NCBI GenBank assembly: GCA_016871575.1
Contig: VHCW01000016.1
Location: forward strand, 133-64,132
Length of the DNA stretch: 64,000 nucleotides
Direction of reading: 5' to 3'
Source of the DNA: Verrucomicrobiota bacterium
Lineage (GTDB): Bacteria; Verrucomicrobiota; Verrucomicrobiia; Palsa-1439
Shown: piece after piece, positions 1,594-18,792 of the stretch
Layout of the letters: each line of letters opens with the position of its first letter
Position numbering within the stretch: the first letter of the stretch is position 1
Notes under the pieces: model-generated
Database searches by the model: none
The model's input: the letters and a program-made list of their open reading frames with translations, nothing else
Told to the model about the DNA's origin: nothing
Position numbers and translations under genes: made by a program

Positions 1594-4392
1594 ATGATGA
1601 AACATCTCTTTGCCCTTTTCATTGCCGTGACCGTCTTCGCTGCCGACGAAAAGGTCGGTCCGTGGAATCTTACTGCGCTCAAGAAGACGATTCCCCAAAT
1701 GCGTTGGGTGGATCAATCGGGACCGGTTCATTCGCTTCTGTATGAAGGCGAGAAGTATCGGGGGCGGGACACGGAGGTCTTCGCGTTTTATGCATCGCCG
1801 ATGACCTTGGGGAAGGCGACTTGCGGCAAGGGCAAATTCCCCGGTGTCGTGCTCATTCACGGCGGCGGCGGGACTGCTTTCGCCGAATGGGCGTGGCTTT
1901 GGGCGCAACGCGGTTACGCAGCCATCGCGATGGATTTGTCCGGTAGCCAGCCGAACGCTCCGGTTTATGACGCAAAGACCGGCGTGCCCGTGCCGGGTCA
2001 GACGGCGAAGAAGGAAACACGCAAACGACTTCCAAACGGCGGCCCCGATCAGGGACACGCCGAAAAGTTCGACAGCATCGGCGGCGACACCAGCGACGAC
2101 TGGCCGTTTCACGCCGCCGCGTCCGTGATGCGAGCACATTCGTTGTTGCGGAGCATGGAGGAAGTGGACGCCGAACACACGGCGGTGACGGGCATCAGTT
2201 GGGGAGGTTACACGACCTGTTTGGTGGCGTCGCTCGATGACCGGTTCAAAGCGGCTGTGCCGGTGTATGGTTGCGGGTTTCTGTTCGAAGGCGAATCGGT
2301 GCAGAAGCCTTCGATAGACAAACTCGGTGACCGCCGCGAGCTTTGGATCAAGACCTATGATCCTTCCAGTCGGTTGCCGCGTTGCCGCGTGCCGATTCTG
2401 TTCGTCAACGGCAGCAACGATATTCATTACCCGCTGGACAGCTACCAGAAGAGCTTCGACTGCGTACCGGGAAAGAAACAGATGAGGATCGAAGTAAACA
2501 TGCGTCACGGCCATGGCCCCGGCTGGGCACCGAAGGAGATCGGGTTGTTCATTGACTCGTATTGCCGGGGCGGGCAACCGCTGCCAGTGCCGAGCAAGCC
2601 AGTTGTTGAAGGTGACTGCGTTCGCATGAGCGTGAAATGCGTTCTGCCACTCAAGGAAGCCAAACTTCACTACACCACCGACACCGGCCTGCGCTCCAAA
2701 CGCAAATGGCAAAGCGTTCCGGCGAAAATCAGCAACGGCGTCGTCACAGCGCCCTGTCCGCCAGCCGACGCCAGCACTTGGTTCCTCACGGTCACCGATG
2801 AGCGTGACGCCATGGTCAGTTCAACAATTCAGTTCGCAACTGGCGGCAATCGCTATCTTCAAGCTGCCGTCACGTTTGCCGATCGGGTTCTCGCGGACGG
2901 CCGGGACAAATATGGGAAGGTGCAAAGCCCGTTGTTTGTGGACGGCCTGCATGTCGCGACGTTGGAACCTGCCCGTTGGAAGCACACCGGGAAAGAATGG
3001 GTGCTGTCGAATTTTGCCAGTCAACAACCGCTGATGCGATTGCTGGATGGATTGACCGCCGTCACCGGCGAGGCGAAGTATCGTCAGGCTGCCGAGGATG
3101 CAGCGCGTCATGTTTTGGAACATCTCCGGACACCGAACGGCTTGTTGTATTGGGGCGGCCATCTGGCGTGGGATTTGGAACAGGAGAAACCGGTGGGGCA
3201 GGGCAGCGACACCCACGAATTGAAAAGCCAGCAGCCGTATTACGAGTTGATGCACCGGGTGAATCCGTCGGCCACCACCAAGCTCATGGAAACGATTTGG
3301 GGCGGTCACGTGTTGGACTGGTCGTTGCTGGATTACAACCGTCACGCCAGCGCGCGAAAACCGTCGCCGCCGTTGTGGTCGCACGAGTTCCGCGAGAACT
3401 CCGAAGTGCCGTTCCCGGCCAAGGGCGGCAACCTCTCGTTTTGTAACGTCACGCCCCCGCTGACGCGCAGCGGTGTGATGCTCGCTGTCCTCGACAAGAA
3501 CGCGGATGCGCTGAAATGGACTCGACGGTTGCTTTTCCGCTGGCAACAAGGACGTGACCCGAAAACCGGTCTGTGCGGCGGACAACTGTCGTATCGCAAG
3601 GACGACCGCGCGCAGGCGGCGCTTGGTCATGTTCACCCCGAAATCAACGAAGCCAAAATGGTGGCCGCTTACCACCAAGTCAGCCGTTACCACACCTTGC
3701 CGCTGGTTCAAATGCAAGCCGCCGAAACGCTGATGCAAACCGGCATCGGTCGTGAGTTTGTGCAGTGGGCTGCCGATGACCTGAAGACTTACTTCCGCCG
3801 TGCGTACGACCCGAAATCGGGGAAACTCGTGGCGTTGTTGACCGATGGCACGCGGATCGAAGGAAGTAAGTCAAAGCCCGGTTACTACGTGGCTGCCTCG
3901 TTTGCGCCCCAAGCTCCCGACGGTTTTCTGTTGTGGGGGTGCGCAATGGCGTACCGATTGACACGCGATAAGGAACTGTTACAGATGGCAACTCAGATCA
4001 GCGATCACCTGGGGCTTGGCGACTTCAGTAAACTGGACACCGATTGTGATGACTGGTCGGTCATCTATGCGCTGCTCGAACTACACCGGGCCACGAAGCG
4101 CCCCGAAATGCTTCGCCTCGCTTGCCGGGTTGGCGACAACCTGCTGAGGAAGCAAACGCCAACCGGATTATTTCCGCGCACTCCCTACCAGTACGCCCGC
4201 ACCGGCGATGAAATCCCGCTGGTGCTGTTGCATCTGGCCGCTGCGCTGGACGGCAAACAATCCTCATTTCCACAGCCCATCTTCGACCGGCGATTCTTCC
4301 ACTGCGAATACCACGGCCCGCTCGAAAAACATCAGCAAAAACGCGACGACAAACGCACCTACGACCACTATGTCTTTTACGGCGATTCCTGA
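1594..4392 (+). CDS. Exported two-domain enzyme: N-terminal alpha/beta-hydrolase esterase (GISWGG nucleophile elbow; acetyl-xylan-esterase/dienelactone-hydrolase-like) fused to a C-terminal alpha-helical polysaccharide-lyase-like ('pectic acid lyase'-type) domain
   Basis: Signal peptide MMKHLFALFIAVTVFAA. HGGGG oxyanion region and GxSxG motif. C-terminal ~530 aa resemble Planctomycete/Verrucomicrobial pectic-acid-lyase-like proteins (assigned from memory; weakest part of the call). Confidence 0.7.
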   Translation: MMKHLFALFIAVTVFAADEKVGPWNLTALKKTIPQMRWVDQSGPVHSLLYEGEKYRGRDTEVFAFYASPMTLGKATCGKGKFPGVVLIHGGGGTAFAEWAWLWAQRGYAAIAMDLSGSQPNAPVYDAKTGVPVPGQTAKKETRKRLPNGGPDQGHAEKFDSIGGDTSDDWPFHAAASVMRAHSLLRSMEEVDAEHTAVTGISWGGYTTCLVASLDDRFKAAVPVYGCGFLFEGESVQKPSIDKLGDRRELWIKTYDPSSRLPRCRVPILFVNGSNDIHYPLDSYQKSFDCVPGKKQMRIEVNMRHGHGPGWAPKEIGLFIDSYCRGGQPLPVPSKPVVEGDCVRMSVKCVLPLKEAKLHYTTDTGLRSKRKWQSVPAKISNGVVTAPCPPADASTWFLTVTDERDAMVSSTIQFATGGNRYLQAAVTFADRVLADGRDKYGKVQSPLFVDGLHVATLEPARWKHTGKEWVLSNFASQQPLMRLLDGLTAVTGEAKYRQAAEDAARHVLEHLRTPNGLLYWGGHLAWDLEQEKPVGQGSDTHELKSQQPYYELMHRVNPSATTKLMETIWGGHVLDWSLLDYNRHASARKPSPPLWSHEFRENSEVPFPAKGGNLSFCNVTPPLTRSGVMLAVLDKNADALKWTRRLLFRWQQGRDPKTGLCGGQLSYRKDDRAQAALGHVHPEINEAKMVAAYHQVSRYHTLPLVQMQAAETLMQTGIGREFVQWAADDLKTYFRRAYDPKSGKLVALLTDGTRIEGSKSKPGYYVAASFAPQAPDGFLLWGCAMAYRLTRDKELLQMATQISDHLGLGDFSKLDTDCDDWSVIYALLELHRATKRPEMLRLACRVGDNLLRKQTPTGLFPRTPYQYARTGDEIPLVLLHLAAALDGKQSSFPQPIFDRRFFHCEYHGPLEKHQQKRDDKRTYDHYVFYGDS

Positions 4393-5294
4393 ATCTCGTT
4401 GGCAGTGAAGAGGGCTTTGGCAAAACTTTTCGGGTCGAATGGTTGAAGGTCGTCCACTTGTTCGCCGAGGCCGATGAATTTTACCGGAATCTTTAGTTCG
4501 CGCGCGATGGCAACGACGATGCCGCCCTTGGCGGTGCCGTCAAGTTTGGTGACGATGAGGCCGGTGATGCCGAGGGTGTTGTGGAACTCGCGCGCTTGAT
4601 GGAGCGCGTTGGTGCCGGTGGTGCCGTCGAGCACCAATAACACTTCATGCGGCGCATCGGGAAGACGTTTGTGGAGCACGCGCCGCATCTTCTTCATTTC
4701 CTCCATCAGGTTCGCCTTTGTGTGAAGGCGACCGGCGGTGTCAATGAGCAGGTAATCGGCATTGCGTTTGATGGCGGCTTCGAGCGCGTCGAATGCAATG
4801 GCCGCGCTGTCGGCTCCGTACTGCCCGTCAATGATGTCGCAACCGACGCGGCCGGCCCAGATTTTGAGTTGTTCGATGGCGGCGGCGCGGAACGTGTCGC
4901 ACGCGGCGAGAAGGACGGTGTGCCCCTGTGATTTCAGCCAGTGCGCGAGTTTGGCGGTGGAAGTGGTTTTGCCGGTGCCATTGACGCCGGCAAGGAGGAT
5001 GACGGTGGGAGAGGCAGGAGGTCGCGGCGCTAAGGCCGCTCCCACATTGGACAATTCGCGTTCGATTTCGGTGCGGGCGATGGCGAAGACATCGGGAGAA
5101 CCGGTTTCCTTGACGCGGGCGACGATGTCGGTGGCGGTGCCGATGCCGATGTCGCTGGCGACCAGCGCGGCTTCGAGTTCGTCAAGCGCATCGGCGTCGA
5201 GGCGCGGGGAACGGGTGATGATGCGTTTGATCTCGGTGGCGAGCTTGGTCGAGGTCTTTTTCAGGCCATCACGGAATTTCTGGAAGAGGTTCAT
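4377..5294 (-). CDS. ftsY: Signal recognition particle receptor FtsY
   Basis: SRP GTPase motifs GVNGTGKTT, DTAGR, TKLDG; NG-domain over the full length. Confidence 0.9.
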   Translation of the reverse strand: MNLFQKFRDGLKKTSTKLATEIKRIITRSPRLDADALDELEAALVASDIGIGTATDIVARVKETGSPDVFAIARTEIERELSNVGAALAPRPPASPTVILLAGVNGTGKTTSTAKLAHWLKSQGHTVLLAACDTFRAAAIEQLKIWAGRVGCDIIDGQYGADSAAIAFDALEAAIKRNADYLLIDTAGRLHTKANLMEEMKKMRRVLHKRLPDAPHEVLLVLDGTTGTNALHQAREFHNTLGITGLIVTKLDGTAKGGIVVAIARELKIPVKFIGLGEQVDDLQPFDPKSFAKALFTANEIQESP

Positions 5295-6082
5295 TTCAGT
5301 TTTTCGACGAGTTCGTACGGGATGCGGACGGCGCCGACGCCGGCATCGTGGGCGTCACTGCCGCCGGTCGGGTGGAGGCCGAGTGAGGCGGCGAGTTGTT
5401 GGCAGTGCCTCGTTTGGGCGGGATTGTGTGCGGGGTGCCATGTCTCGATGCCGCGGAGTCCTTGGTCGCGCATGTCACGGATGTCAATGTCGGTGATGGC
5501 AGAGAGGCCGGGATGCGCGAGCACGGGAACGCCGCCGGAGGAGTTGATGTGGTGGATTCCCTCGGCAGCCGTCACCCGGTGACGCTCGACATGGGCGGGT
5601 TTGCCGGGGCGGAGGAAACGGGCGAATGCTTCTTCCACGTTGCGGACGAAACCACGCGCGAGCAGGGCGCGGGCAACGTGCAGGCGGCCGAGGGAAGCGC
5701 TGCTGGCGCAGTGTTGCACGTCGGCAACCGTCAGGTCGAGTCCGAGCGCATTGAGTCGTTCCACGATTTGAACGATGCGCTTGGCGCGGACGTCGCGGGC
5801 AAACTGGAGAACACGGGCGAAGGCAGCATCGCGCCAGTTGTTGTGGAGGTAGTAGCCGAGAAGATGGACTTCGTGTTGACAGACGTGGCAGGTGAGTTCG
5901 ACGCCGGGGATGACCTCGATGCCGTTGGCGACGGCGAGCGCCGGGGCGATGCCGTCAAACGTGTCGTGGTCGGTGATGGCGATGGCGGCGAGGCCGTTTG
6001 TTTTCGCAGCGCGGACAAGATCGGCTGGTGAAAGTGTCCCATCCGAGCAGGCGCTGTGGATGTGCAGGTCGGCGAACTTCAT
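5291..6082 (-). CDS. PHP-domain metal-dependent phosphoesterase (TrpH/YciV family)
   Basis: N-terminal DLHIHSACSDG ... ITDHDT PHP motifs. Stop overlaps the ftsY start (ATGA). Confidence 0.8.
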   Translation of the reverse strand: MKFADLHIHSACSDGTLSPADLVRAAKTNGLAAIAITDHDTFDGIAPALAVANGIEVIPGVELTCHVCQHEVHLLGYYLHNNWRDAAFARVLQFARDVRAKRIVQIVERLNALGLDLTVADVQHCASSASLGRLHVARALLARGFVRNVEEAFARFLRPGKPAHVERHRVTAAEGIHHINSSGGVPVLAHPGLSAITDIDIRDMRDQGLRGIETWHPAHNPAQTRHCQQLAASLGLHPTGGSDAHDAGVGAVRIPYELVEKLK

Positions 6083-6540
6083 TTGCCGGACGCGGTGCGC
6101 GCAGGGCGCGGAAGGTCGGAACGGAGGCGGTCGAGGATGCCGTTGACGAAGGCGCCGCTTTCGCGCGTGGAGTAGCGCTTGGCGATCTCGACGGCTTCGT
6201 TGATGCTGACGACGGGAGGAATATCGTCGCGGCAGGTCATTTCATAGATGGCGAGGCGGAGGATGTTGCGGTCCACGGCGGCCATGCGCGGCAATTCCCA
6301 GTGCTCGGTGTATTTGCGGAGTTTCTCGTCAATGCTTTCCCGGTTCGTCGCGCAGCCGTGGATGAGTTCCTCGGCAAACGTCCGCACGTTGTCCTCGATG
6401 TTGGTCTGCGTCTGCCAGAACATCGGAAGCGCGTCCGCCAGGGTGTCGCCGGTGCTGAGGTCGAATTGGTACAGGAACTGGACGGCCAATTCGCGGGCGT
6501 GCCGGCGTTTGCCGGGATGTTTTACTGGCTTTTCCATAGG
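6079..6540 (-). CDS. nusB: Transcription antitermination factor NusB
   Basis: ARELAVQFLYQ ... ILRLAIYEM NusB signature. The six-frame ORF extends to 6792 but the first 84 aa are an unconserved read-through overlapping ribH; start placed at the Met of MEKPVKHPG. Confidence 0.8.
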   Translation of the reverse strand, partial: PMEKPVKHPGKRRHARELAVQFLYQFDLSTGDTLADALPMFWQTQTNIEDNVRTFAEELIHGCATNRESIDEKLRKYTEHWELPRMAAVDRNILRLAIYEMTCRDDIPPVVSINEAVEIAKRYSTRESGAFVNGILDRLRSDLPRPARTASGK

Positions 6541-6992
6541 CGTGCCATGGCGACGGCGGTTTCGGCGGCTTCGCGTCCCCGGTTGTAGCGGGTGCTGAGG
6601 CAGCGGACGCGGGCTTGTTGCAGCGTGTTGGCGGTGACAACGCCGAAAACAGTCGGCACGCCGGTGAGGTAGCTGATCTGGGTCAGGCCGTGCGCGACGG
6701 AATCGGCAATGTGATGCGCATGACTGGTTTGCCCCTTGAGAATGACGCCGAGGCCGATGATGCAATCGTAGCGGCGCGACTTGGCAAGCCACGCGGCCGC
6801 GGCGCTGATCTCAAAGCTGCCGGGCACGCGGAGGACGCGGATGTCGCGCGCGCGCGCGCCGGCGGCGCAGAGTGTCTTGACGCAGTTCTCGACGAGCGCG
6901 TCGGCGAGTTCGGGGTTGTAACAGGCGGCGGCGATGCCGAAGCGGAGACCTTGGGCGGCAAGTGTTGATTTGGTTTTGTGGGCGCGTAACAT
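6522..6992 (-). CDS. ribH: 6,7-dimethyl-8-ribityllumazine synthase
   Basis: RFGIAAA.YN ... VPGSFEI ... GVILKG lumazine synthase motifs; classic ribH-nusB adjacency. Confidence 0.9.
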   Translation of the reverse strand: MLRAHKTKSTLAAQGLRFGIAAACYNPELADALVENCVKTLCAAGARARDIRVLRVPGSFEISAAAAWLAKSRRYDCIIGLGVILKGQTSHAHHIADSVAHGLTQISYLTGVPTVFGVVTANTLQQARVRCLSTRYNRGREAAETAVAMARLWKSQ

Positions 6993-6994
6993 GG

Positions 6995-8212
6995 TCAGAG
7001 TGTGTGTCCCATTTTTTTCTTTTTCGTTTCGAGGTACTTGACGTTGTGCGCTGTGGGTGTGATGCGGATGGGGAGTTGTTCGGTGATTTTCAGGCCAAAC
7101 CCCTCGAGGCCGACAATTTTTCTCGGATTGTTTGTCAGCAGGCGGATGCTGCGGAGACCGAGGTCGGCGAGAATCTGCGCGCCGAGGCCGTATTCGCGGA
7201 GGTCGGGTTTGAAGCCGAGTTTCTCATTGGCCTCGACGGTGTCGAGTCCGGTTTCTTGCAGCGCGTAGGCGTGCATCTTGTTGGCGAAACCGATGCCGCG
7301 CCCTTCCTGCCGCATATAGACGAGAACGCCGGCGCCCTCGGCGGCAATGCGCCGAAGGGCCTCGTGAAGTTGATGGCCGCAGTCGCAACGCTGGGAGCCA
7401 AAGACGTCACCGGTGAGGCATTCGCTGTGGACGCGGACGAGCACGTTTTCCTTGCCGCGCAACTTCCCCATCACAAGCGCGCAGTGATGCTGATTGTCCA
7501 CGAGCGAGCGATACAGATGAAGGCGGAACTCGCCGTGCTCGGTGGGCATGGCCACTTCCTGCTCGCGCACGATGAGGCGTTCGCGTTGGCGGCGGTATTC
7601 GATGAGGTCGCGGATGGTGCAGAGCTTGAGGCCGTGGGTCTGCTTGTAGTTCAACAGTTCCGGCAACCGGGCCATGCTGCCGTCCTCATTCAGGATCTCG
7701 CAGATGACTCCGACAGCGTAGAGTCCCGCCATGCGGATGAGGTCCACGCATGCTTCGGTGTGTCCGGCGCGACAGAGCACGCCGCCTTCGCGGGCTTGCA
7801 GCGGAAAAATGTGGCCGGGAGAAACGAGTTCCTCGGACGCGGCGTGCGGGTCGGCCAGAATGCGAATGGTGCGGGCGCGGTCGTAGGCGCTGATGCCGGT
7901 GGTGATGCCAGTGCGGGCGTCCACGCTGACAGTGAAGGCGGTGCGGTAGGAGTCGCGGTTCTCGCGGACCATCGGCTCGATGTTGAGCGCCTGGAGACGG
8001 CGCTCGGTGGTCGGCACGCAAATCAGCCCGCGGCCATGTTTGGCCATAAAATTGACGGCATCCGGCGTGGCTTTTTCGGCGGCCATGACGAGGTCGCCTT
8101 CATTTTCGCGGTCTTCGTCATCGGTCACAATGATCATTCGACCCTGCCGGATTTCTTCCACGCAGGATTCAATCGAGTCAAAGGCGGATGGATTGTCTGG
8201 GCGTTTGCTCAT
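6995..8212 (-). CDS. ribBA: Bifunctional 3,4-dihydroxy-2-butanone-4-phosphate synthase / GTP cyclohydrolase II
   Basis: [22 protein letters not shown] (DHBP synthase) and C-terminal GTP cyclohydrolase II region (CxCGHQL). Start chosen at MSKRPD. Confidence 0.9.
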
Positions 8213-8559
8213 CAAGGGCGTGACAGTAGCAGGAACGGCAACACAGTGCAAACCCGTTTGGTGATCCCGTTGGTGAACGGATTTCGTTTCAAGGGCATCG
8301 CCTTCGTCTCTTGAACTCCGTCAAACTTGAATGGAAGGGCACGTTTCTAGTAACGCACGCAGTCCCGTGTCGTTTCGGGACGGAGTGCGAATCGTTTGGA
8401 CGGAACGATCTCGCGCAACCCCACTTCGCTTCGCTGCGTGGCTCACTACGAACTACCCTTTGGATGTGGTTTGATGGAGCACGCTCGCCGGTATTCTGGT
8501 CTTGCCTTGTCACCGCGATAGACGGTATTCTGAGCACACAAACAAACAGGAGGCATTCC

Positions 8560-9363
8560 ATGAAATGTCAGGTTTCTGCTGCTGTTCGCGGTATGTTGTT
8601 GTTGGTCGTGTTTGCCGTTGCGGTGAGTTGTGGGAAATCGCAATCTTCCGGCAGTCCCACTGCGCAAGGCAATCTCGCCGTGGACCTCGGCGGCGGGGTG
8701 ACGATGGACTTCGTGCTCATCCGTCCCGGCAACTTCACGATGGGGTCGGACAAGGGAAGCAGCGACGAAAAGCCGGCGCGCAAGGTGACAATCACCAAAC
8801 CGTTTTATCTCGGCAAGTTTGAGGTCACGCAGGAGCAGTGGCAGGCCGTGATGGGCAGCAATCCCAGCAACTTCAAGGGCGCGAAGAATCCGGTTGACAC
8901 TGTAAATTGGGAGGATTGCCTGACGTTCGTGCGGAAACTGGGCGAGAAAGTGCCGGGGTACACGTTCCGGTTGCCGACGGAAGCGGAATGGGAATACGCC
9001 TGCCGCGCCGGCAGCAGCAGCGAGTATTGCTATGGCGATGATACCGGTGGGTTGGGCGACTACGCTTGGTACAGCAATAACTCCGGCAGCAAGACGCATA
9101 CGGTCGGTGAGAAAAAACCGAATACGTGGGGACTCTATGACATGCACGGTAACGTCTATGAATGGTGTCAGGATTGGTATGGAAACTATTCCACCAACGC
9201 GGAGACCGATCCGGTCGGGCCGTCTTCCGGGTCGAACCGTGTGTTGCGCGGCGGTTCATGGAGCCGCAATGCCTCGACTTGCCGGTCGGCAATCCGTTAC
9301 AACTTCAACCCGTCGAATCGCTTCTACATCTACGGGTTGCGGGTTGTGGTGGTCGTGCGCTGA
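8560..9363 (+). CDS. DGR target (variable) protein: lipoprotein with an FGE-sulfatase / C-type-lectin-fold domain; VR at the C-terminus
   Basis: RBS AGGAGG 6 nt upstream of the 8560 ATG. Lipobox AVSC/G. FGE-sulfatase hallmarks ([47 protein letters not shown]). The last ~45 codons are the VR. Confidence 0.85.
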   Translation: MKCQVSAAVRGMLLLVVFAVAVSCGKSQSSGSPTAQGNLAVDLGGGVTMDFVLIRPGNFTMGSDKGSSDEKPARKVTITKPFYLGKFEVTQEQWQAVMGSNPSNFKGAKNPVDTVNWEDCLTFVRKLGEKVPGYTFRLPTEAEWEYACRAGSSSEYCYGDDTGGLGDYAWYSNNSGSKTHTVGEKKPNTWGLYDMHGNVYEWCQDWYGNYSTNAETDPVGPSSGSNRVLRGGSWSRNASTCRSAIRYNFNPSNRFYIYGLRVVVVVR

Positions 9364-9369
9364 GGGCTT
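9227..9369 (+). repeat. DGR variable repeat (VR), 143 bp, ending 6 nt past the target stop codon
   Basis: Gap-free alignment to 10938-11080. Within the 143-bp body, 13 of 14 substitutions lie at positions that are A in the other copy; one is G/T (9297/11008). There is one further G/C difference at the 3' boundary (9365/11076). Mismatched sites map onto AAC/AAT codons of the other copy. Confidence 0.85.
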
Positions 9370-9393
9370 AATTACAATTTAGATTTTTACCTC

Positions 9394-9412
9394 CGCCGCG
9401 CGAAGCGCGGCG
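9394..9412 (+). promoter_or_regulatory. GC-rich hairpin (CGCCGCGC-GAA-GCGCGGCG) 25 bp downstream of the VR; position matches the stem-loop required for DGR retrohoming in characterized systems
   Basis: 8-bp perfect stem read from sequence. A similar hairpin (GCCGCGCC-AACG-GGCGCGGC) occurs at 11163-11182 downstream of the TR. Confidence 0.5.
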
Positions 9413-9517
9413 CCGGCTGCAAAATTTATGAAAGCAACCACAAAGCGGGAGCAAGCTCCCGCACTCCATATTTGGAGTGCGGCGACTCGTCGCCGCTTTG
9501 CCGTTCTCTGACCGCAA

Positions 9518-9859
9518 ATGATGACCGCTCATCGTCCGCCAATCTATACGAAGTATTACGATCTACTGGGGTGGCTGCTGGATCGCACGGCGAAGTTTCC
9601 GAAGAACATGCGGTTCGGGCTGGTGCAGAAGATCGAAACCATCGCGTTGCGTCTGCTGGAGCAGTTCATCGAGGCGATTTACCGCAAAGACCGCGCCGCG
9701 CTCTACCTGCCGGTGAACCTCGACTTGGAAAAGCTGCGTGTCTTTCTGCGGCTGAGCCACGACCGCGGCGTCCTCAGCGCCGACCAACTGCGCTTTGCGA
9801 TTGGCGAGATTGATGAAATCGGTCGGATGTGGCACGGCTGGGTGAAACCAAAGCCGTGA
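9518..9859 (+). CDS. avd: DGR accessory variability determinant (Avd; four-helix-bundle / 23S rRNA IVS protein family)
   Basis: 113 aa, basic, helical. YTKYYDLLGWLLDRTAKFPKNMRFGLVQKIETIALRLLEQFIEA parallels the Bordetella phage bAvd pattern. Sits immediately upstream of the RT and overlaps it. Confidence 0.8.
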   Translation: MMTAHRPPIYTKYYDLLGWLLDRTAKFPKNMRFGLVQKIETIALRLLEQFIEAIYRKDRAALYLPVNLDLEKLRVFLRLSHDRGVLSADQLRFAIGEIDEIGRMWHGWVKPKP

Positions 9860-10908
9860 AACGCTTCGGCAACCTCTACGATGCGATTTGCTCTTGGGAT
9901 AACTTGGAACTGGCCGCCCGCCGCGCCCGGAAACGGAAACGTTACCGGTGGTACGCTGAGGACTTCGAGTTGCGCCGCGAGTCGGTGCTGCGCGAGATTT
10001 ACAACGAACTGATTGAGCAACGCTGGCAACCCGCGCCCTACGAAACCTTCCGCATCTACGATCCGAAGGAGCGCCTGATCTGCGCCGCGCCGTACCGCGA
10101 CCGTATCGTTCATCACGCTGTCTGCAACATCGTTGCACCGCTCTTGGAACGCAGTTTCATCGCCCACAGTTACGCCTGTCGCCTCGGCAAAGGCACGGGC
10201 GCGGCGCGGGCGCACTGCCGGCAGTTGGTGAAACAGTACCCATACGCGCTGAAAGCGGACGTGACGAAATACTTCGCCTCGATTGACCACGCGCTCTTGA
10301 AAACGAAGCTGCGCCGCCATCTCAAGTGCGCGCCGACGCTGGCGTTGCTCGACCGCATCATTGATTCGTGGCAAACGACCGACGAACCGCCCGCGTGGTT
10401 TGCGGGCGACGATCTATTGACGCCGCTGGCGCGTCCGCGCGGCCTGCCGATTGGCGCGTTGACGAGCCAGTTGTTCGCCAACCTGTATCTGAGCCGTATT
10501 GATCATCTCGTCGAGGAACAACTCCAACCCGGTGGCTACGCGCGGTACACGGATGACTTGGTGCTGTTCGCCGACTCGAAGCGGTTCCTATGGGATGCGC
10601 TCGACCGGCTCCGGGCGGAGTTCGCAGCGGAACGGTTGCAAGCGCATCCGGTCAAGTGTCAGGTGCTGGCCTGTCGGGACGGTGTGCCGTTCCTCGGCTT
10701 CCGGTTCGGCCCGGATTGGACGCGCGTGTTGCCGGAGAACGTGCGCCGTTTCCACCGCCGGATGGCAGCGTTGCGGCGTGCGGTTCGGGCGGAACGAAGA
10801 CGGTTGGCTGAGGCGTGGCCGACGATGTTCAGGTGGTTTCAGTTCGTCCGCGAACAACCCGGCAACGACGGACTGGTGCTGGCCGAATGCCAGCGCCAAG
10901 TGTTTTGA
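9856..10908 (+). CDS. DGR reverse transcriptase
   Basis: RT motifs including the DGR-specific LPIGALTSQ ([I/L]GxxxSQ replacing the QGxxxSP of group II/retron RTs) and YTDDLV (YxDD). N-terminus KRFGNLYDAICSWDNL resembles bRT. Start proposed at GTG 9856 overlapping the avd stop (GTGA); the six-frame ORF opens at 9829. Confidence 0.88.
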   Translation: MKRFGNLYDAICSWDNLELAARRARKRKRYRWYAEDFELRRESVLREIYNELIEQRWQPAPYETFRIYDPKERLICAAPYRDRIVHHAVCNIVAPLLERSFIAHSYACRLGKGTGAARAHCRQLVKQYPYALKADVTKYFASIDHALLKTKLRRHLKCAPTLALLDRIIDSWQTTDEPPAWFAGDDLLTPLARPRGLPIGALTSQLFANLYLSRIDHLVEEQLQPGGYARYTDDLVLFADSKRFLWDALDRLRAEFAAERLQAHPVKCQVLACRDGVPFLGFRFGPDWTRVLPENVRRFHRRMAALRRAVRAERRRLAEAWPTMFRWFQFVREQPGNDGLVLAECQRQVF

Positions 10909-10937
10909 GATCGAGACGTAAGGGGGCTGGCCCGCGA

Positions 10938-11080
10938 CCGGGTCGAACCGTGTGTTGCGCGGCGGTTCATGGAACAACAATGCCACGAATTGCCGGTCGG
11001 CAAACCGGAACAACAACAACCCGTCGAATCGCAACAACAACTACGGGTTGCGGGTTGTGGTGGTCGTGCGCTGAGCGCTT
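10938..11080 (+). repeat. DGR template repeat (TR), 143 bp, 30 bp downstream of the RT stop
   Basis: Contains 12 AAC/AAT codons in the VR reading frame (e.g. aac-aac-aat, aac-cgg-aac-aac-aac-aac, aac-aac-aac-tac) that are the mismatched sites. Confidence 0.85.
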
Positions 11081-11249
11081 TCCTTCCGGAGGAGAGATTG
11101 GCCGCGTTCATCAGGACGCGGTCACCGTTCCAATGGAAAGCCCAGGGCCGGTCTCCCGCGCCGCCGCGCCAACGGGCGCGGCGAGCCAAACACGCGGCAC
11201 CGGGGCGGGGCTGGTAGCCAGACCAACAGGCGAAAGCCCCGCTCCGTTG

Positions 11250-11304
11250 TGAGACTTAGACTGTGAGACTTAGACTTGCGATGATTGTCGAGGAAGGGTA
11301 GAAT
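11250..11304 (+). promoter_or_regulatory. Putative vapBC promoter/operator: tandem direct repeat TGAGACTTAGACT x2 abutting -35 TTGCGA, 17-nt spacer, -10 TAGAAT
   Basis: Read directly: 11250-11276 repeats, 11276-11281 TTGCGA, 11299-11304 TAGAAT, RBS GAAGGTG at 11311-11317. Confidence 0.4.
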
Positions 11305-11322
11305 GACCACGAAGGTGAAACT

Positions 11323-11538
11323 ATGACGTATCGCGGTCACGTGAAATCTGGTCAGGTGGTATTGGATGAACCGACGCGGTTGCCGGAAGGCGCCGAGGTG
11401 TCGGTCGAGGTGGCTTCGTCGGCCGGGGTGTCATCCTTGGGGCAAACACTGCTCCAGTACGCCGGTCAGGCGCGGGATTTGCCTGCCGATGCCGCTCGCA
11501 ACCACGATCACTACTTGTACGGGACACCGCGCCAATGA
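11323..11538 (+). CDS. vapB: Type II antitoxin (VapB-like, AbrB/SpoVT-type small DNA-binding protein)
   Basis: 71 aa. Stop overlaps the start of the downstream PIN-domain gene (ATGA at 11535). Confidence 0.6.
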   Translation: MTYRGHVKSGQVVLDEPTRLPEGAEVSVEVASSAGVSSLGQTLLQYAGQARDLPADAARNHDHYLYGTPRQ

Positions 11539-11936
11539 GCCGGGTGTTTGCCGACACGTCGTACTATTTGGCGCTGCTCAATTCCCGCGATGAGTTCCAT
11601 TCCATTGCTTGCCAACAAACCGGTGCCTTGAACGGTCGGATTGTGACCACCGCTTGGGTAATCACGGAACTGGGCAACTTCATGGCGAAGGGAGCCAATC
11701 GCCGTTTGTTTCTGGCATTGTTGGCCGCGCTGCGCGACGATGATCGCGTGACCATTGTGCCGCCCACGACTGAACTGTTGGAGGATGCGCTGGCGCTGTA
11801 CGCTCGCCGCGCGGATAAGGATTGGTCGGTCACGGATTGTGTTTCGTTTGTGGTGATGGAGGAACACGGGTTGAAGGAAGCTCTCACTGCCGATCATCAC
11901 TTTGCACAAGCGGGTTTTCACACGTTGCTTCTCTGA
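11535..11936 (+). CDS. vapC: PIN-domain toxin, VapC family
   Basis: N-terminal FADTSYYLALLNSRDEFH (PIN acidic residue), later acidic residues; ~133 aa, typical VapC size. Confidence 0.8.
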   Translation: MSRVFADTSYYLALLNSRDEFHSIACQQTGALNGRIVTTAWVITELGNFMAKGANRRLFLALLAALRDDDRVTIVPPTTELLEDALALYARRADKDWSVTDCVSFVVMEEHGLKEALTADHHFAQAGFHTLLL

Positions 11937-14327: not shown

Positions 14328-14404
14328 TGGTGGGCGCGACAGGACTTGAACCTGTGACCTCGCGGGTGTGATCCGCGCGTTCTAGCCAACTGAACTACGC
14401 GCCC
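14328..14404 (-). tRNA. tRNA-Val (anticodon CAC), with encoded CCA
   Basis: Reverse complement folds as GGGCGCG-TA-GTTC-AGTTGGCTA-GAAC-G-CGCGG-ATCACAC-CCGCG-AGGTC-ACAGG-TTCAAGT-CCTGT-CGCGCCC-A-CCA. All four stems pair perfectly; T-loop TTCAAGT. Confidence 0.9.
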
Positions 14405-17847: not shown

Positions 17848-18693
17848 TCAGTCGTCACTGGCAATCTTCGGCGTTCTGTCCAGTCCAATGGCGACTCGAA
17901 ACCCGACGTTGAGCAGGCGCACGGATGGGGTGTACACGTCGCGGACGAACGAGCGGCATTCCTTGGCGCTGTAGAGCCACGAGCCGCCGCGCAACATGCG
18001 TCGCGAGCCGGAGCGCGGCCCGACGGGGTCGGTGACGTCGTTCGCATTCGGATTGCCATACCAATCCTGACACCACTCCCAGACGTTGCCGTGCATGTCG
18101 TGCAAACCCCATGCATTTGCTTTCTTCTCGCCAACAGGATGAGACGTGCCATGCGAGTTGGCGTTGAACCAGGCGTATTCGGCCAGCTTGCGGGCGTTGT
18201 TGCCATAACAATACTCAGTTGCGCTCCCCGCCCGGCAGTCATATTCCCATTCCGCTTCCGTTGGCAGACGGAACCGAAAACCCGGCATTTGCCCGCGCAG
18301 TTTCTGCAGAAATAGCTGGCAATCTTCCCATGCTGTCATTTCGACCGGATTCTTATCTCCCTTGAAGTGGCTCGGATTGTTGCCCATCACGGTGCGCCAC
18401 TGTTCCTGGGTCACCTCATGCTTGCCGATGTAAAATGGCTTGGTAAGCGTGACCGTGTGCAGCGGGGTTTCGGGATGGGCTTTCACCGACCCCATCTGAA
18501 ACCGTCCCGGCCGGATGAGAACAAAGTGCATCTCAATACCATTGCCAAGATTCAGGGTCAGGTTTGTCTTCAATCCAGCAGCGGAATCACCGGCATTGGA
18601 TACCGGCTGTGGCTTCGATTGGGCATGGAGAACGCCGACAGCCCCGACGACCATCGTCAAACCGATTACAACCACGAACTCGTGACGTTTCAT
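17848..18693 (-). CDS. FGE-sulfatase-domain exported protein (paralog of the DGR target, not diversified)
   Basis: Same domain architecture and motifs (FYIGKHEVTQEQW, RLPTEAEWEYDCRAG, GNVWEWCQDWY, RMLRGGSW). The C-terminal DNA differs from the TR at many non-adenine positions. Confidence 0.8.
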   Translation of the reverse strand: MKRHEFVVVIGLTMVVGAVGVLHAQSKPQPVSNAGDSAAGLKTNLTLNLGNGIEMHFVLIRPGRFQMGSVKAHPETPLHTVTLTKPFYIGKHEVTQEQWRTVMGNNPSHFKGDKNPVEMTAWEDCQLFLQKLRGQMPGFRFRLPTEAEWEYDCRAGSATEYCYGNNARKLAEYAWFNANSHGTSHPVGEKKANAWGLHDMHGNVWEWCQDWYGNPNANDVTDPVGPRSGSRRMLRGGSWLYSAKECRSFVRDVYTPSVRLLNVGFRVAIGLDRTPKIASDD

Positions 18694-18792
18694 AGAGTCC
18701 TCCCTTCCTGTGGCTGAAGAATAACACCAATGGATTGCGGAAAGCAAACACAGAATGAGACTTGGAACCGCGCAACTAACGACTGCGATGCA

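Follow-up and report, generated by a model that had tools for sequence, protein, structure and literature searches.

A small lipoprotein gene in an uncultivated Verrucomicrobiota bacterium, represented by a metagenome-assembled genome (MAG), is followed by an accessory gene, a reverse transcriptase (RT) gene and, beyond both of these, a near-copy of its own 3' end, which raises the question of whether this locus is a genuine diversity-generating retroelement (DGR) and whether it still diversifies its target. The locus (NCBI proteins MBM3859038-40) lies in the 64,000-nucleotide stretch of DNA that we analysed, referred to here as the window, and it had been described as a complete DGR in a reading made without database searches (the sequence-only reading). 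Each component named in that reading, namely Avd, the RT, the target and the adenine bias of the repeats, passed an independent test, and we conclude that the region at 8560-11250 is almost certainly a chromosomal DGR with the order target-avd-RT-TR, in which TR denotes the template region. The element is complete and genuine, it remodels the binding tip of a small lipoprotein that is predicted from its sequence to be located at the cell surface, and it is, as far as appearances go, probably active. It is also a standard DGR, a well-formed instance of a published architecture and not a new kind of element, and it is compact, with a single target and no additional accessory genes in about 2.7 kb.

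The first line of evidence for this conclusion is a pair of 143-nt repeats, comprising the variable region (VR) at the 3' end of the target gene and the TR in the gap 3' of the RT gene (Table 1). As reported in the sequence-only reading, the alignment of the two repeats is gapless, with an offset that stays at 1711 throughout. Our base-by-base tally found 15 mismatches over the 143 nt, 13 of which fall on TR adenines instead of being spread over the four template bases, and the hypergeometric probability of at least 13 such mismatches given 33 adenines in 143 positions is 4.6e-8. The earlier figure of 13 out of 14 substitutions at adenines is correct for the coding body alone and does not extend to the full repeat, and the number of AAY codons in the TR, previously given as 12, is 14 by our count. 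The two remaining mismatches are at TR G11008, which sits immediately 5' of the substituted A11009 and causes a synonymous CGG to CGT change, and at TR C11076, which faces G9365 of the VR two bases past the target stop codon; non-adenine positions of the repeats therefore differ at 2 of 110 sites. Substituted VR sites extend from 9263 to 9329 and change nine of the 14 AAY codons together with one ACG codon, which has become TCG. The residues encoded at these codons (S235, R236, S239, T240, I245, Y247, F249, F255, Y256 and I257) match exactly the ten listed in the sequence-only reading, and all 10 amino acid changes lie in adenine-containing codons, the sole coding change at any other base being the synonymous one. 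Nine of the substitutions are A to T, two are A to G and two are A to C, a spectrum that fits the observation that dATP is the nucleotide most often misincorporated opposite adenine by bRT, the RT of the Bordetella phage DGR (PMC7826257). No substitution of TR adenines can generate a stop codon, and the theoretical repertoire of the TR amounts to 1.8e19 DNA variants and 4.7e17 protein variants. Homology weakens 5' of position 9227: over a 168-nt extension, identity amounts to 85% and mismatches affect every type of base, and 9227 and 10938 are thus fair 5' boundaries of the repeats. When the TR was slid over both strands with non-adenine positions scored, no third copy of the repeat was found in the window.

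The same pattern recurs in related cassettes, which have an Avd or RT more than 90% identical to that of the window. In the cassette on contigs L008/L009, 14 of 15 mismatches between the repeats are at template adenines (P = 2e-10), and in that on contig L010 the proportion is 18 of 25 in an alignment that includes about 17 nt of flank.

The proteins encoded between the repeats likewise belong to DGR families. The product of the gene at 9518-9859, which the sequence-only reading took for an Avd family member and which NCBI already annotates as 'diversity-generating retroelement protein Avd', matches Pfam bAvd (2.1e-19) as well as the DGR-Avd equivalog of NCBIfam, NF033474 DivGenRetAVD (87 bits; cut-off 80). 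JGI calls this protein as a 112-aa form starting at 9521, and the exact-protein look-up found this form in the records but not the exact 113-aa protein. The RT product matches RVT_1 of Pfam and contains both motifs that had been pointed out from the sequence, LPIGALTSQ (IGALTSQ at residues 208-214 of a 359-aa form) and YTDD (residues 240-243); the signature [I/V/L]GxxxSQ of DGR RTs replaces the QGxxxSP of other RTs (PMC7826257). Its best solved relative is chain A of 8ub7 (E = 3e-49, 171 bits), and the next solved relatives, which are group II intron, 'retron-type' and Cas-associated RTs, follow by a margin of 127 bits at about 1e-10 and 44 bits or less. We identify 8ub7 as the Bordetella phage bRT because its numbering agrees with the bRT residues discussed in bioRxiv 10.1101/2023.10.23.563531. 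In the alignment to 8ub7, bRT residues K29, F66, R74, I76, D138, I181, G182, Q187 and D215/D216 are all kept in the window RT, and two of these, R74 and I181, promote adenine mutagenesis in bRT (PMC7826257). NCBIfam models of non-DGR RTs score far below their cut-offs, with 119 of 300 bits for group II, 49 of 390 for Drt2 and 44 of 235 for retron St85, and on these sequence comparisons the RT belongs to the DGR clade. Its start is probably GTG 9856, as the sequence-only reading had assumed, because the resulting 350-aa form is present in related cassettes and the alignment with bRT begins at residue 11; both JGI and NCBI call the 359-aa form from GTG 9829.

The target had been described as a small lipoprotein with an FGE-sulfatase / C-type-lectin fold (FGE, formylglycine-generating enzyme), and sequence and structure comparisons both agree. 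The protein matches the FGE-sulfatase domain of Pfam at 6.5e-50, and its closest solved relative by sequence is TvpA, the DGR variable protein of Treponema denticola (2y3c, 1.7e-44), in an alignment that spans the VR. An AlphaFold2 model made with 50 homologs (predicted local distance difference test score 90.5, predicted template modelling score 0.83) also has TvpA as its top Foldseek match in the PDB, with a template modelling score of 0.80 and a root mean square deviation of 2.4 Å, while formylglycine-generating enzymes rank lower. Pattern inspection suggests that the protein is a lipoprotein, with a signal peptide ending in a lipobox-like AVSC (Cys24), and a ribosome-binding site (AGGAGG, 8548-8553) can be read from the sequence 6 nt 5' of the ATG; NCBI places the start at 8593, giving a 256-aa form. 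In the 50-homolog alignment, the positions that vary between VR and TR fall on hypervariable columns of the family. Column entropy is 3.2-3.7 bits at the positions of the TR Asn codons compared with a domain mean of 1.1 bits, and the interleaved scaffold residues G231, W234, R246, G259 and R261 show no or almost no variation. The family comprises at least 7,988 proteins at E <= 1e-20 in a large protein search, in which identity above 90% was confined to the window's own cluster and no further VR alleles were found; its matches were put to no use other than building the alignment for the fold model and calculating column entropies.

Evidence for recent activity comes from natural alleles of the VR. 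The contigs considered here come from different assemblies and were recovered by exact-protein look-ups. The allele of the window is also present on contigs L006 (JGI 3300020083) and L037 (JGI 3300020074), the second of which ends 7 nt past the stop codon. Contig L005, which is 37 kb long, shares its sample of origin with L037 and starts inside the VR, differs from the window at 4 of 6,537 nt (9323, 9325, 9326 and 9329), and all four differences are templated by adenines (TR 11034, 11036, 11037 and 11040) of a TR that is itself identical to that of the window. L005 and L037 therefore represent two VR alleles in one sample on an otherwise identical background. A further VR was found on contig L007 (ENA ERZ27245471, k141_63302), which is identical to the window outside the VR at 9159-9996 and within the VR has 23 of 25 differences at TR adenine positions, together with one extra codon in an AAC run. 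Over the compared range of 8757-10073, L007 also carries 49 differences at 8757-9158, corresponding to about 12% divergence mostly at third codon positions, and seven clustered differences at 9997-10014 in the RT gene. This pattern suggests a mosaic with a breakpoint just upstream of the VR, produced either by strain recombination or by chimeric assembly, and the use of L007 as a near-identical background was dropped once the full alignment had revealed it.

The VR polymorphism at adenine-templated sites and the near-absence of differences at other template bases (2 of 110) indicate recent activity. The sequence-only reading had also taken the repeats to be consistent with recent or ongoing homing, and the allelic variation supports such activity at the level of contigs. 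Its own argument, which takes a small number of VR/TR differences as a sign of recent homing, does not hold: the whole VR is replaced at every event, so that the number of differences at adenine sites is a measure of misincorporation per event and of selection, and not of elapsed time. In the VR, 13 of the 33 TR adenines (39%) are changed, a proportion that would be close to the yield of a single event if misincorporation were near the roughly 50% of bRT (PMC7826257).

Two observations on assembly quality adjoin these results. At its end, L037 (Ga0194113_10024631) reads ...CTGAGGAATTA where the window has CTGAGGGCTTAATTA (9361-9373), and thus lacks 4 nt (GCTT) at the point where VR/TR homology ends; although this is the boundary of the putative initiation of mutagenic homing (IMH) site, the gap is probably a contig-end artefact. 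Every short-read contig with this RT or target (L001-L004, L005/L037) breaks at or within the VR or TR, as would be expected from repeat collapse and VR heterogeneity, and the four Logan contigs with an identical RT, which are 1.2-1.6 kb long, have their ends near the repeats. The practical warning is that DGR loci are under-assembled in metagenomes.

We also found candidates for the nucleic acid elements that direct homing in the phage system. The VR and TR share an identical 35-nt block near their 3' ends (9330-9364 and 11041-11075), followed by G9365 in the VR against C11076 in the TR and by a common CTT at which homology ends, and related cassettes keep both the G on the VR side and the C on the TR side. 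By analogy with the model established for phage BPP-1, this end of the VR may play an IMH-like role. An inverted repeat with an all-GC stem, situated 24 nt 3' of the end of VR/TR homology, is a candidate target-recognition hairpin or cruciform, again by analogy with BPP-1, whose homing requires a GC-rich hairpin/cruciform 3' of the VR (Guo et al. 2011, PMC3240598). Hairpins of phage DGRs have stems of 7-10 bp and 4-nt GRNA loops and lie 4-34 bp from the VR (Guo et al. 2011, PMC3240598), and the window hairpin fits this rule in stem and in distance. Three consecutive hairpins follow between the VR and avd, in an intergenic stretch (9364-9517) with a DNA fold z of -3.99; a possible role for them is transcription termination or attenuation ahead of avd, on the 3' side of the target gene, and no convincing plus-strand terminator was called at them.

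The TR is embedded in conserved RNA that is predicted to be structured. On its 3' side, about 170 nt (fold z = -4.35 relative to shuffled sequence) are kept in the window, L008, L010 and L036, with homology halting right afterwards, and this segment is a candidate counterpart of the 'Sp' spacer of BPP-1. It is predicted to contain a stem-loop at 11099-11124, a second stem-loop at 11157-11186 that leads into an A-rich CCAAACAC (11186-11193), and a long terminal hairpin at 11197-11250. On its 5' side are a predicted stem-loop at 10874-10898, a GUGUUU at 10900-10905 and the element GGGGGCUGGCCC at 10922-10933, which is identical in the four cassette variants while adjoining bases vary. From these four sequences, which are closely related and form the entire basis of the consensus, RNAalifold predicts a 12-bp duplex that brackets the TR, in which GGGGGCUGGCCC, immediately upstream of the TR, pairs with GGGCCGGUCUCC (11145-11156), 65 nt downstream of it. 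It further predicts pairing of GUGUUU, which is part of the last RT codons, with AAACAC at 11188-11193. The consensus fold includes 10 compensatory pairs, mostly in hairpins, the terminal hairpin among them. No Rfam family was found around the cassette at either permissive or gathering thresholds, and a CRISPR-repeat match inside the GC-rich stem-loop was dismissed at 20.8 bits against a threshold of 39. Apart from its loop, the candidate hairpin 3' of the VR agrees with what has been published on the requirements of DGRs, as does the conserved RNA predicted to fold around the TR. A more speculative idea is that the template RNA of avd-RT-TR cassettes has a fixed architecture of its own, consisting of the 12-bp clamp, the GUGUUU/AAACAC pairing and the GAA-triloop hairpin. 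Taken jointly with the interpretation of a paralog of the target elsewhere in the window as a former DGR target, which is described below, we consider this idea rather doubtful; if true, it would show in what way the RNA requirements of BPP-1 are re-established in cassettes that have the TR behind the RT.

In the mechanism that we propose, the TR and its flanking RNA (about 10874-11250) would be transcribed, and the RT together with Avd would copy the TR into complementary DNA, misincorporating only opposite template adenines. The complementary DNA would then replace the VR at the 3' end of the lipoprotein gene, in a direction probably set by the shared 35-nt block, the G9365 versus C11076 difference and the GC hairpin. 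The expected outcome is a population of lipoproteins that vary at the 14 Asn-templated positions plus T239 and Y258, i.e. at up to 16 residues, on a fixed scaffold, and these positions would lie on the ligand-binding part of the FGE-type C-type-lectin fold. The BPP-1 model further suggests that reverse transcription may be primed in cis from the post-TR RNA, and it is also the source of the roles proposed for the hairpin and for the duplex bracketing the TR.

Several observations weigh against an actively diversifying element or against details of this mechanism. VR heterogeneity is known from two to three assembled alleles, at the level of contigs and not of reads, and L007, being a mosaic, offers no clean same-strain comparison and was given less weight. 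At least three assemblies, those of the window, L006 and L037, have one and the same VR allele, which means that diversification is not fast enough for every assembly to differ. Scanning for promoters and terminators gave no cassette promoter and nothing above the expectation from shuffled sequence. With regard to the RNA model, none of the four variants has a change in the long-range duplex, whose support is therefore conservation and not covariation, and the hairpin 3' of the VR has a 3-nt GAA loop instead of a 4-nt GRNA loop.

Some of these observations could also be accommodated by a DGR that is intact but silent, in which diversification occurred in the past and the present VR alleles are old, stably inherited strain markers. 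The recurrence of one allele in the window, L006 and L037, and hence in at least two samples, the recovery of only two to three alleles and the empty promoter scan all speak for such a scenario. Nonetheless, we consider it improbable. An old polymorphism would bring background differences with it, whereas L005 agrees with the window at 6,533 of 6,537 bases and departs from it exclusively at adenine-templated VR sites. The scarcity of non-adenine differences between VR and TR argues for little drift since the last homing event, and every part of the machinery (RT, Avd, TR and flanking RNA) is intact and conserved. Far less credible still is a plain segmental duplication of the lipoprotein 3' end that has changed by ordinary mutation or gene conversion and by chance neighbours an unrelated RT of retron, group II intron or defence type: generic, group II and DRT models of PADLOC and NCBIfam do match the RT, as they would any RT, but this explanation was already refuted by the mismatch tally, with its adenine bias recurring in independent cassettes, and by the RT comparison, in which every NCBIfam match is far below cut-off and bRT leads the solved relatives, and it is further contradicted by Rfam, which identified no RNA of group II introns or retrons in the window, and by the AAY codons that the second copy has at exactly the hypervariable positions of the family.

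A DGR of standard type is also what comparison with characterized systems points to. The prototype, BPP-1 (mtd-avd-TR-brt), shares with the window element Avd and a DGR-clade RT (IGxxxSQ, YxDD), a VR at the 3' end of the target, adenine-specific and A to T-rich substitutions, an identical 3' block of VR and TR, a GC-rich 8-bp hairpin (a candidate one here) 3' of the VR and a post-TR RNA of similar size (about 170 nt here, where structure is predicted, and 140 nt for Sp). By contrast, BPP-1 is a phage and diversifies a tail fibre, whereas the element described here is carried on a bacterial chromosome and targets an FGE-type lipoprotein. The TR of BPP-1 lies between avd and the RT gene but here follows the RT gene, with the consequence that the RNA segment preceding the TR corresponds here to the RT gene's 3' end but in BPP-1 to that of avd. 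The hairpin loops also differ (GAAA in BPP-1, GAA here), and in the window element the IMH and its TR counterpart are distinguished by one base within the shared stretch. The T. denticola DGR of TvpA (PDB 2y3c) resembles the window element in having a bacterial cell-envelope target, but it is classed as Architecture C and comprises several targets and an accessory gene of the HRDC type (Wu et al., PMC5758913), where we find Avd and, in the window, a single target. The DGR of Legionella pneumophila is, like the present one, an Avd-type (Architecture B) cellular element whose target is a C-type-lectin-fold lipoprotein diversified at its C-terminus; in Legionella this target, LdtA, is displayed at the surface (PMC5758913). 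It differs in that LdtA is not FGE-type and in that the element resides within an integrative conjugative element, while the window cassette has no flanking mobile-element genes, its neighbours being ribBA, ribH and nusB on one side and a VapC-type toxin-antitoxin pair on the other.

The gene order target-avd-RT-TR corresponds to "Architecture B2" of Wu et al. 2018 (PMC5758913). Verrucomicrobia are part of the PVC group (Planctomycetes, Verrucomicrobia, Chlamydiae), one of the taxon groups by which DGRs are classified in Roux et al. 2021 (PMC8144416), whose catalogue holds about 31,000 DGRs (size quoted in bioRxiv 10.1101/2023.10.23.563531). The window element agrees with these DGRs in gene order, in host supergroup and in its FGE-sulfatase-type target, a common class, and there is no categorical difference. 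General knowledge of DGRs is unchanged by this element; its contribution is a complete DGR, clean in its features and to all appearances active, from a lineage of Verrucomicrobiota not yet in culture, for which natural alleles of the VR are already available. Its compactness and clearly bounded RNA flanks would make it a convenient cassette in which to test the RNA rules of the Bordetella phage in an avd-RT-TR context, and its ecological role hinges on the ligand of the variable lipoprotein.

Table 1. Features of the DGR cassette, in window coordinates.
Feature	Position	Strand	Basis or remarks
Target gene (variable protein), 267 aa	8560-9363	+	Open reading frame; Pfam FGE-sulfatase; TvpA homology
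Variable region (VR)	9227-9369	+	Last 45 target codons, stop codon 9361-9363 and 6 nt; ungapped alignment to TR
IMH-like VR 3' end	9330-9369	+	35-nt identity with TR, one discriminating base, then CTT
GC-rich inverted repeat	9394-9412	+	8-bp stem CGCCGCGC/GCGCGGCG, loop GAA
Three consecutive hairpins	9445-9496	+	Between VR and avd
avd accessory gene, 113 aa	9518-9859	+	Pfam bAvd; NCBIfam DivGenRetAVD
DGR reverse transcriptase gene, 350 aa	9856-10908	+	GTG start overlapping avd stop as GTGA
Template-RNA 5' flank	10874-10937	+	RNAalifold, four cassette variants
Template region (TR)	10938-11080	+	Non-coding, in gap 3' of RT gene; 33 adenines, 14 in-frame AAY codons
Conserved structured non-coding RNA	11081-11250	+	3' of TR; about 170 nt

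The related cassettes occupy other genomic contexts and serve other targets. The target of L008/L009 is a 458-aa protein with leucine-rich repeats and an FGE domain, compared with 267 aa in the window, and neighbouring genes include LacI, an SSF transporter, PQQ and metK in L008 and MacB/FtsX in L036. Homology among L008/L009, L010, L036 and the window ends sharply after the terminal hairpin, at about 11250 of the window. A shared module with differing targets and neighbours and such a sharp end of homology indicates that the cassette moves, or is shuffled, as a unit. A cassette of different appearance is found on contig L033 (JGI 3300045017, Ga0438303_0009524), where an Avd more than 90% identical to that of the window and a 690-aa FGE target lie within about 1864-7351. 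The position of the RT is taken there by two short open reading frames (164 and 136 aa) with no RVT_1 match on record, and repeat offsets of 3122, 2163 and 5285 suggest more than one VR-like copy; L033 may be a decaying or rearranged DGR.

In the window, ribBA, ribH and nusB lie upstream of the cassette on the minus strand and a two-gene toxin-antitoxin pair lies downstream. No integrase or phage gene was found near the cassette, which shows only a mild dip in GC content, and viral contigs of IMG/VR contained no RT closer than 37% and no post-TR RNA motif, which lends no support to a phage origin. In a metagenome scan with the RT, L010 (91%) was the only close relative; a further 22 matches were distant RTs of DGR type with identities of 26-42%, most of which came from gut metagenomes, and the scan overlooked JGI contigs that the exact-protein look-up had recovered. 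At the level of exact motifs, the cassette subfamily was not found in GTDB species representatives. The sole match in the genome collection to the invariant TR/spacer junction motif TTTCCTTCCGGNGGAGAGATTG, in a 'Prevotellaceae' MAG of 31% GC, lies in an unrelated open reading frame with no repeat pair and was rejected as a chance occurrence.

Elsewhere in the window, a second FGE-sulfatase-domain protein of 299 aa is encoded at 17848-18747 on the minus strand; it is 57% identical to the target and has a signal peptide with no lipobox Cys. Its VR-equivalent stretch (17869-18011) agrees with the TR at 76% of non-adenine positions and 29% of adenine positions, the DNA identity over the whole gene being 72%. 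It has no IMH end, and the protein runs on past this stretch. We rejected it as a second current VR on account of the 57% identity and the missing IMH end; it could be a former DGR target that has lost its IMH, or a paralog that differs at fast-evolving binding residues.

Immediately after the cassette, the only tandem repeat of the window, two copies of TGTGAGACTTAGAC at 11248-11276, adjoins a promoter-like TTGCGA-17-TAGAAT at 11276-11304. A 71-aa open reading frame with no family match (11323-11538, plus strand) follows and overlaps by 4 nt a PIN-domain gene at 11535-11936. The segment at 11248-11936 has the appearance of a toxin-antitoxin pair of the VapBC type, operator included, and is not part of the DGR cassette, since the related cassettes have other neighbours. 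Finally, a tRNA-Val (CAC) at 14328-14404 on the minus strand is both the only tRNA and the only Rfam match at gathering level in the window.

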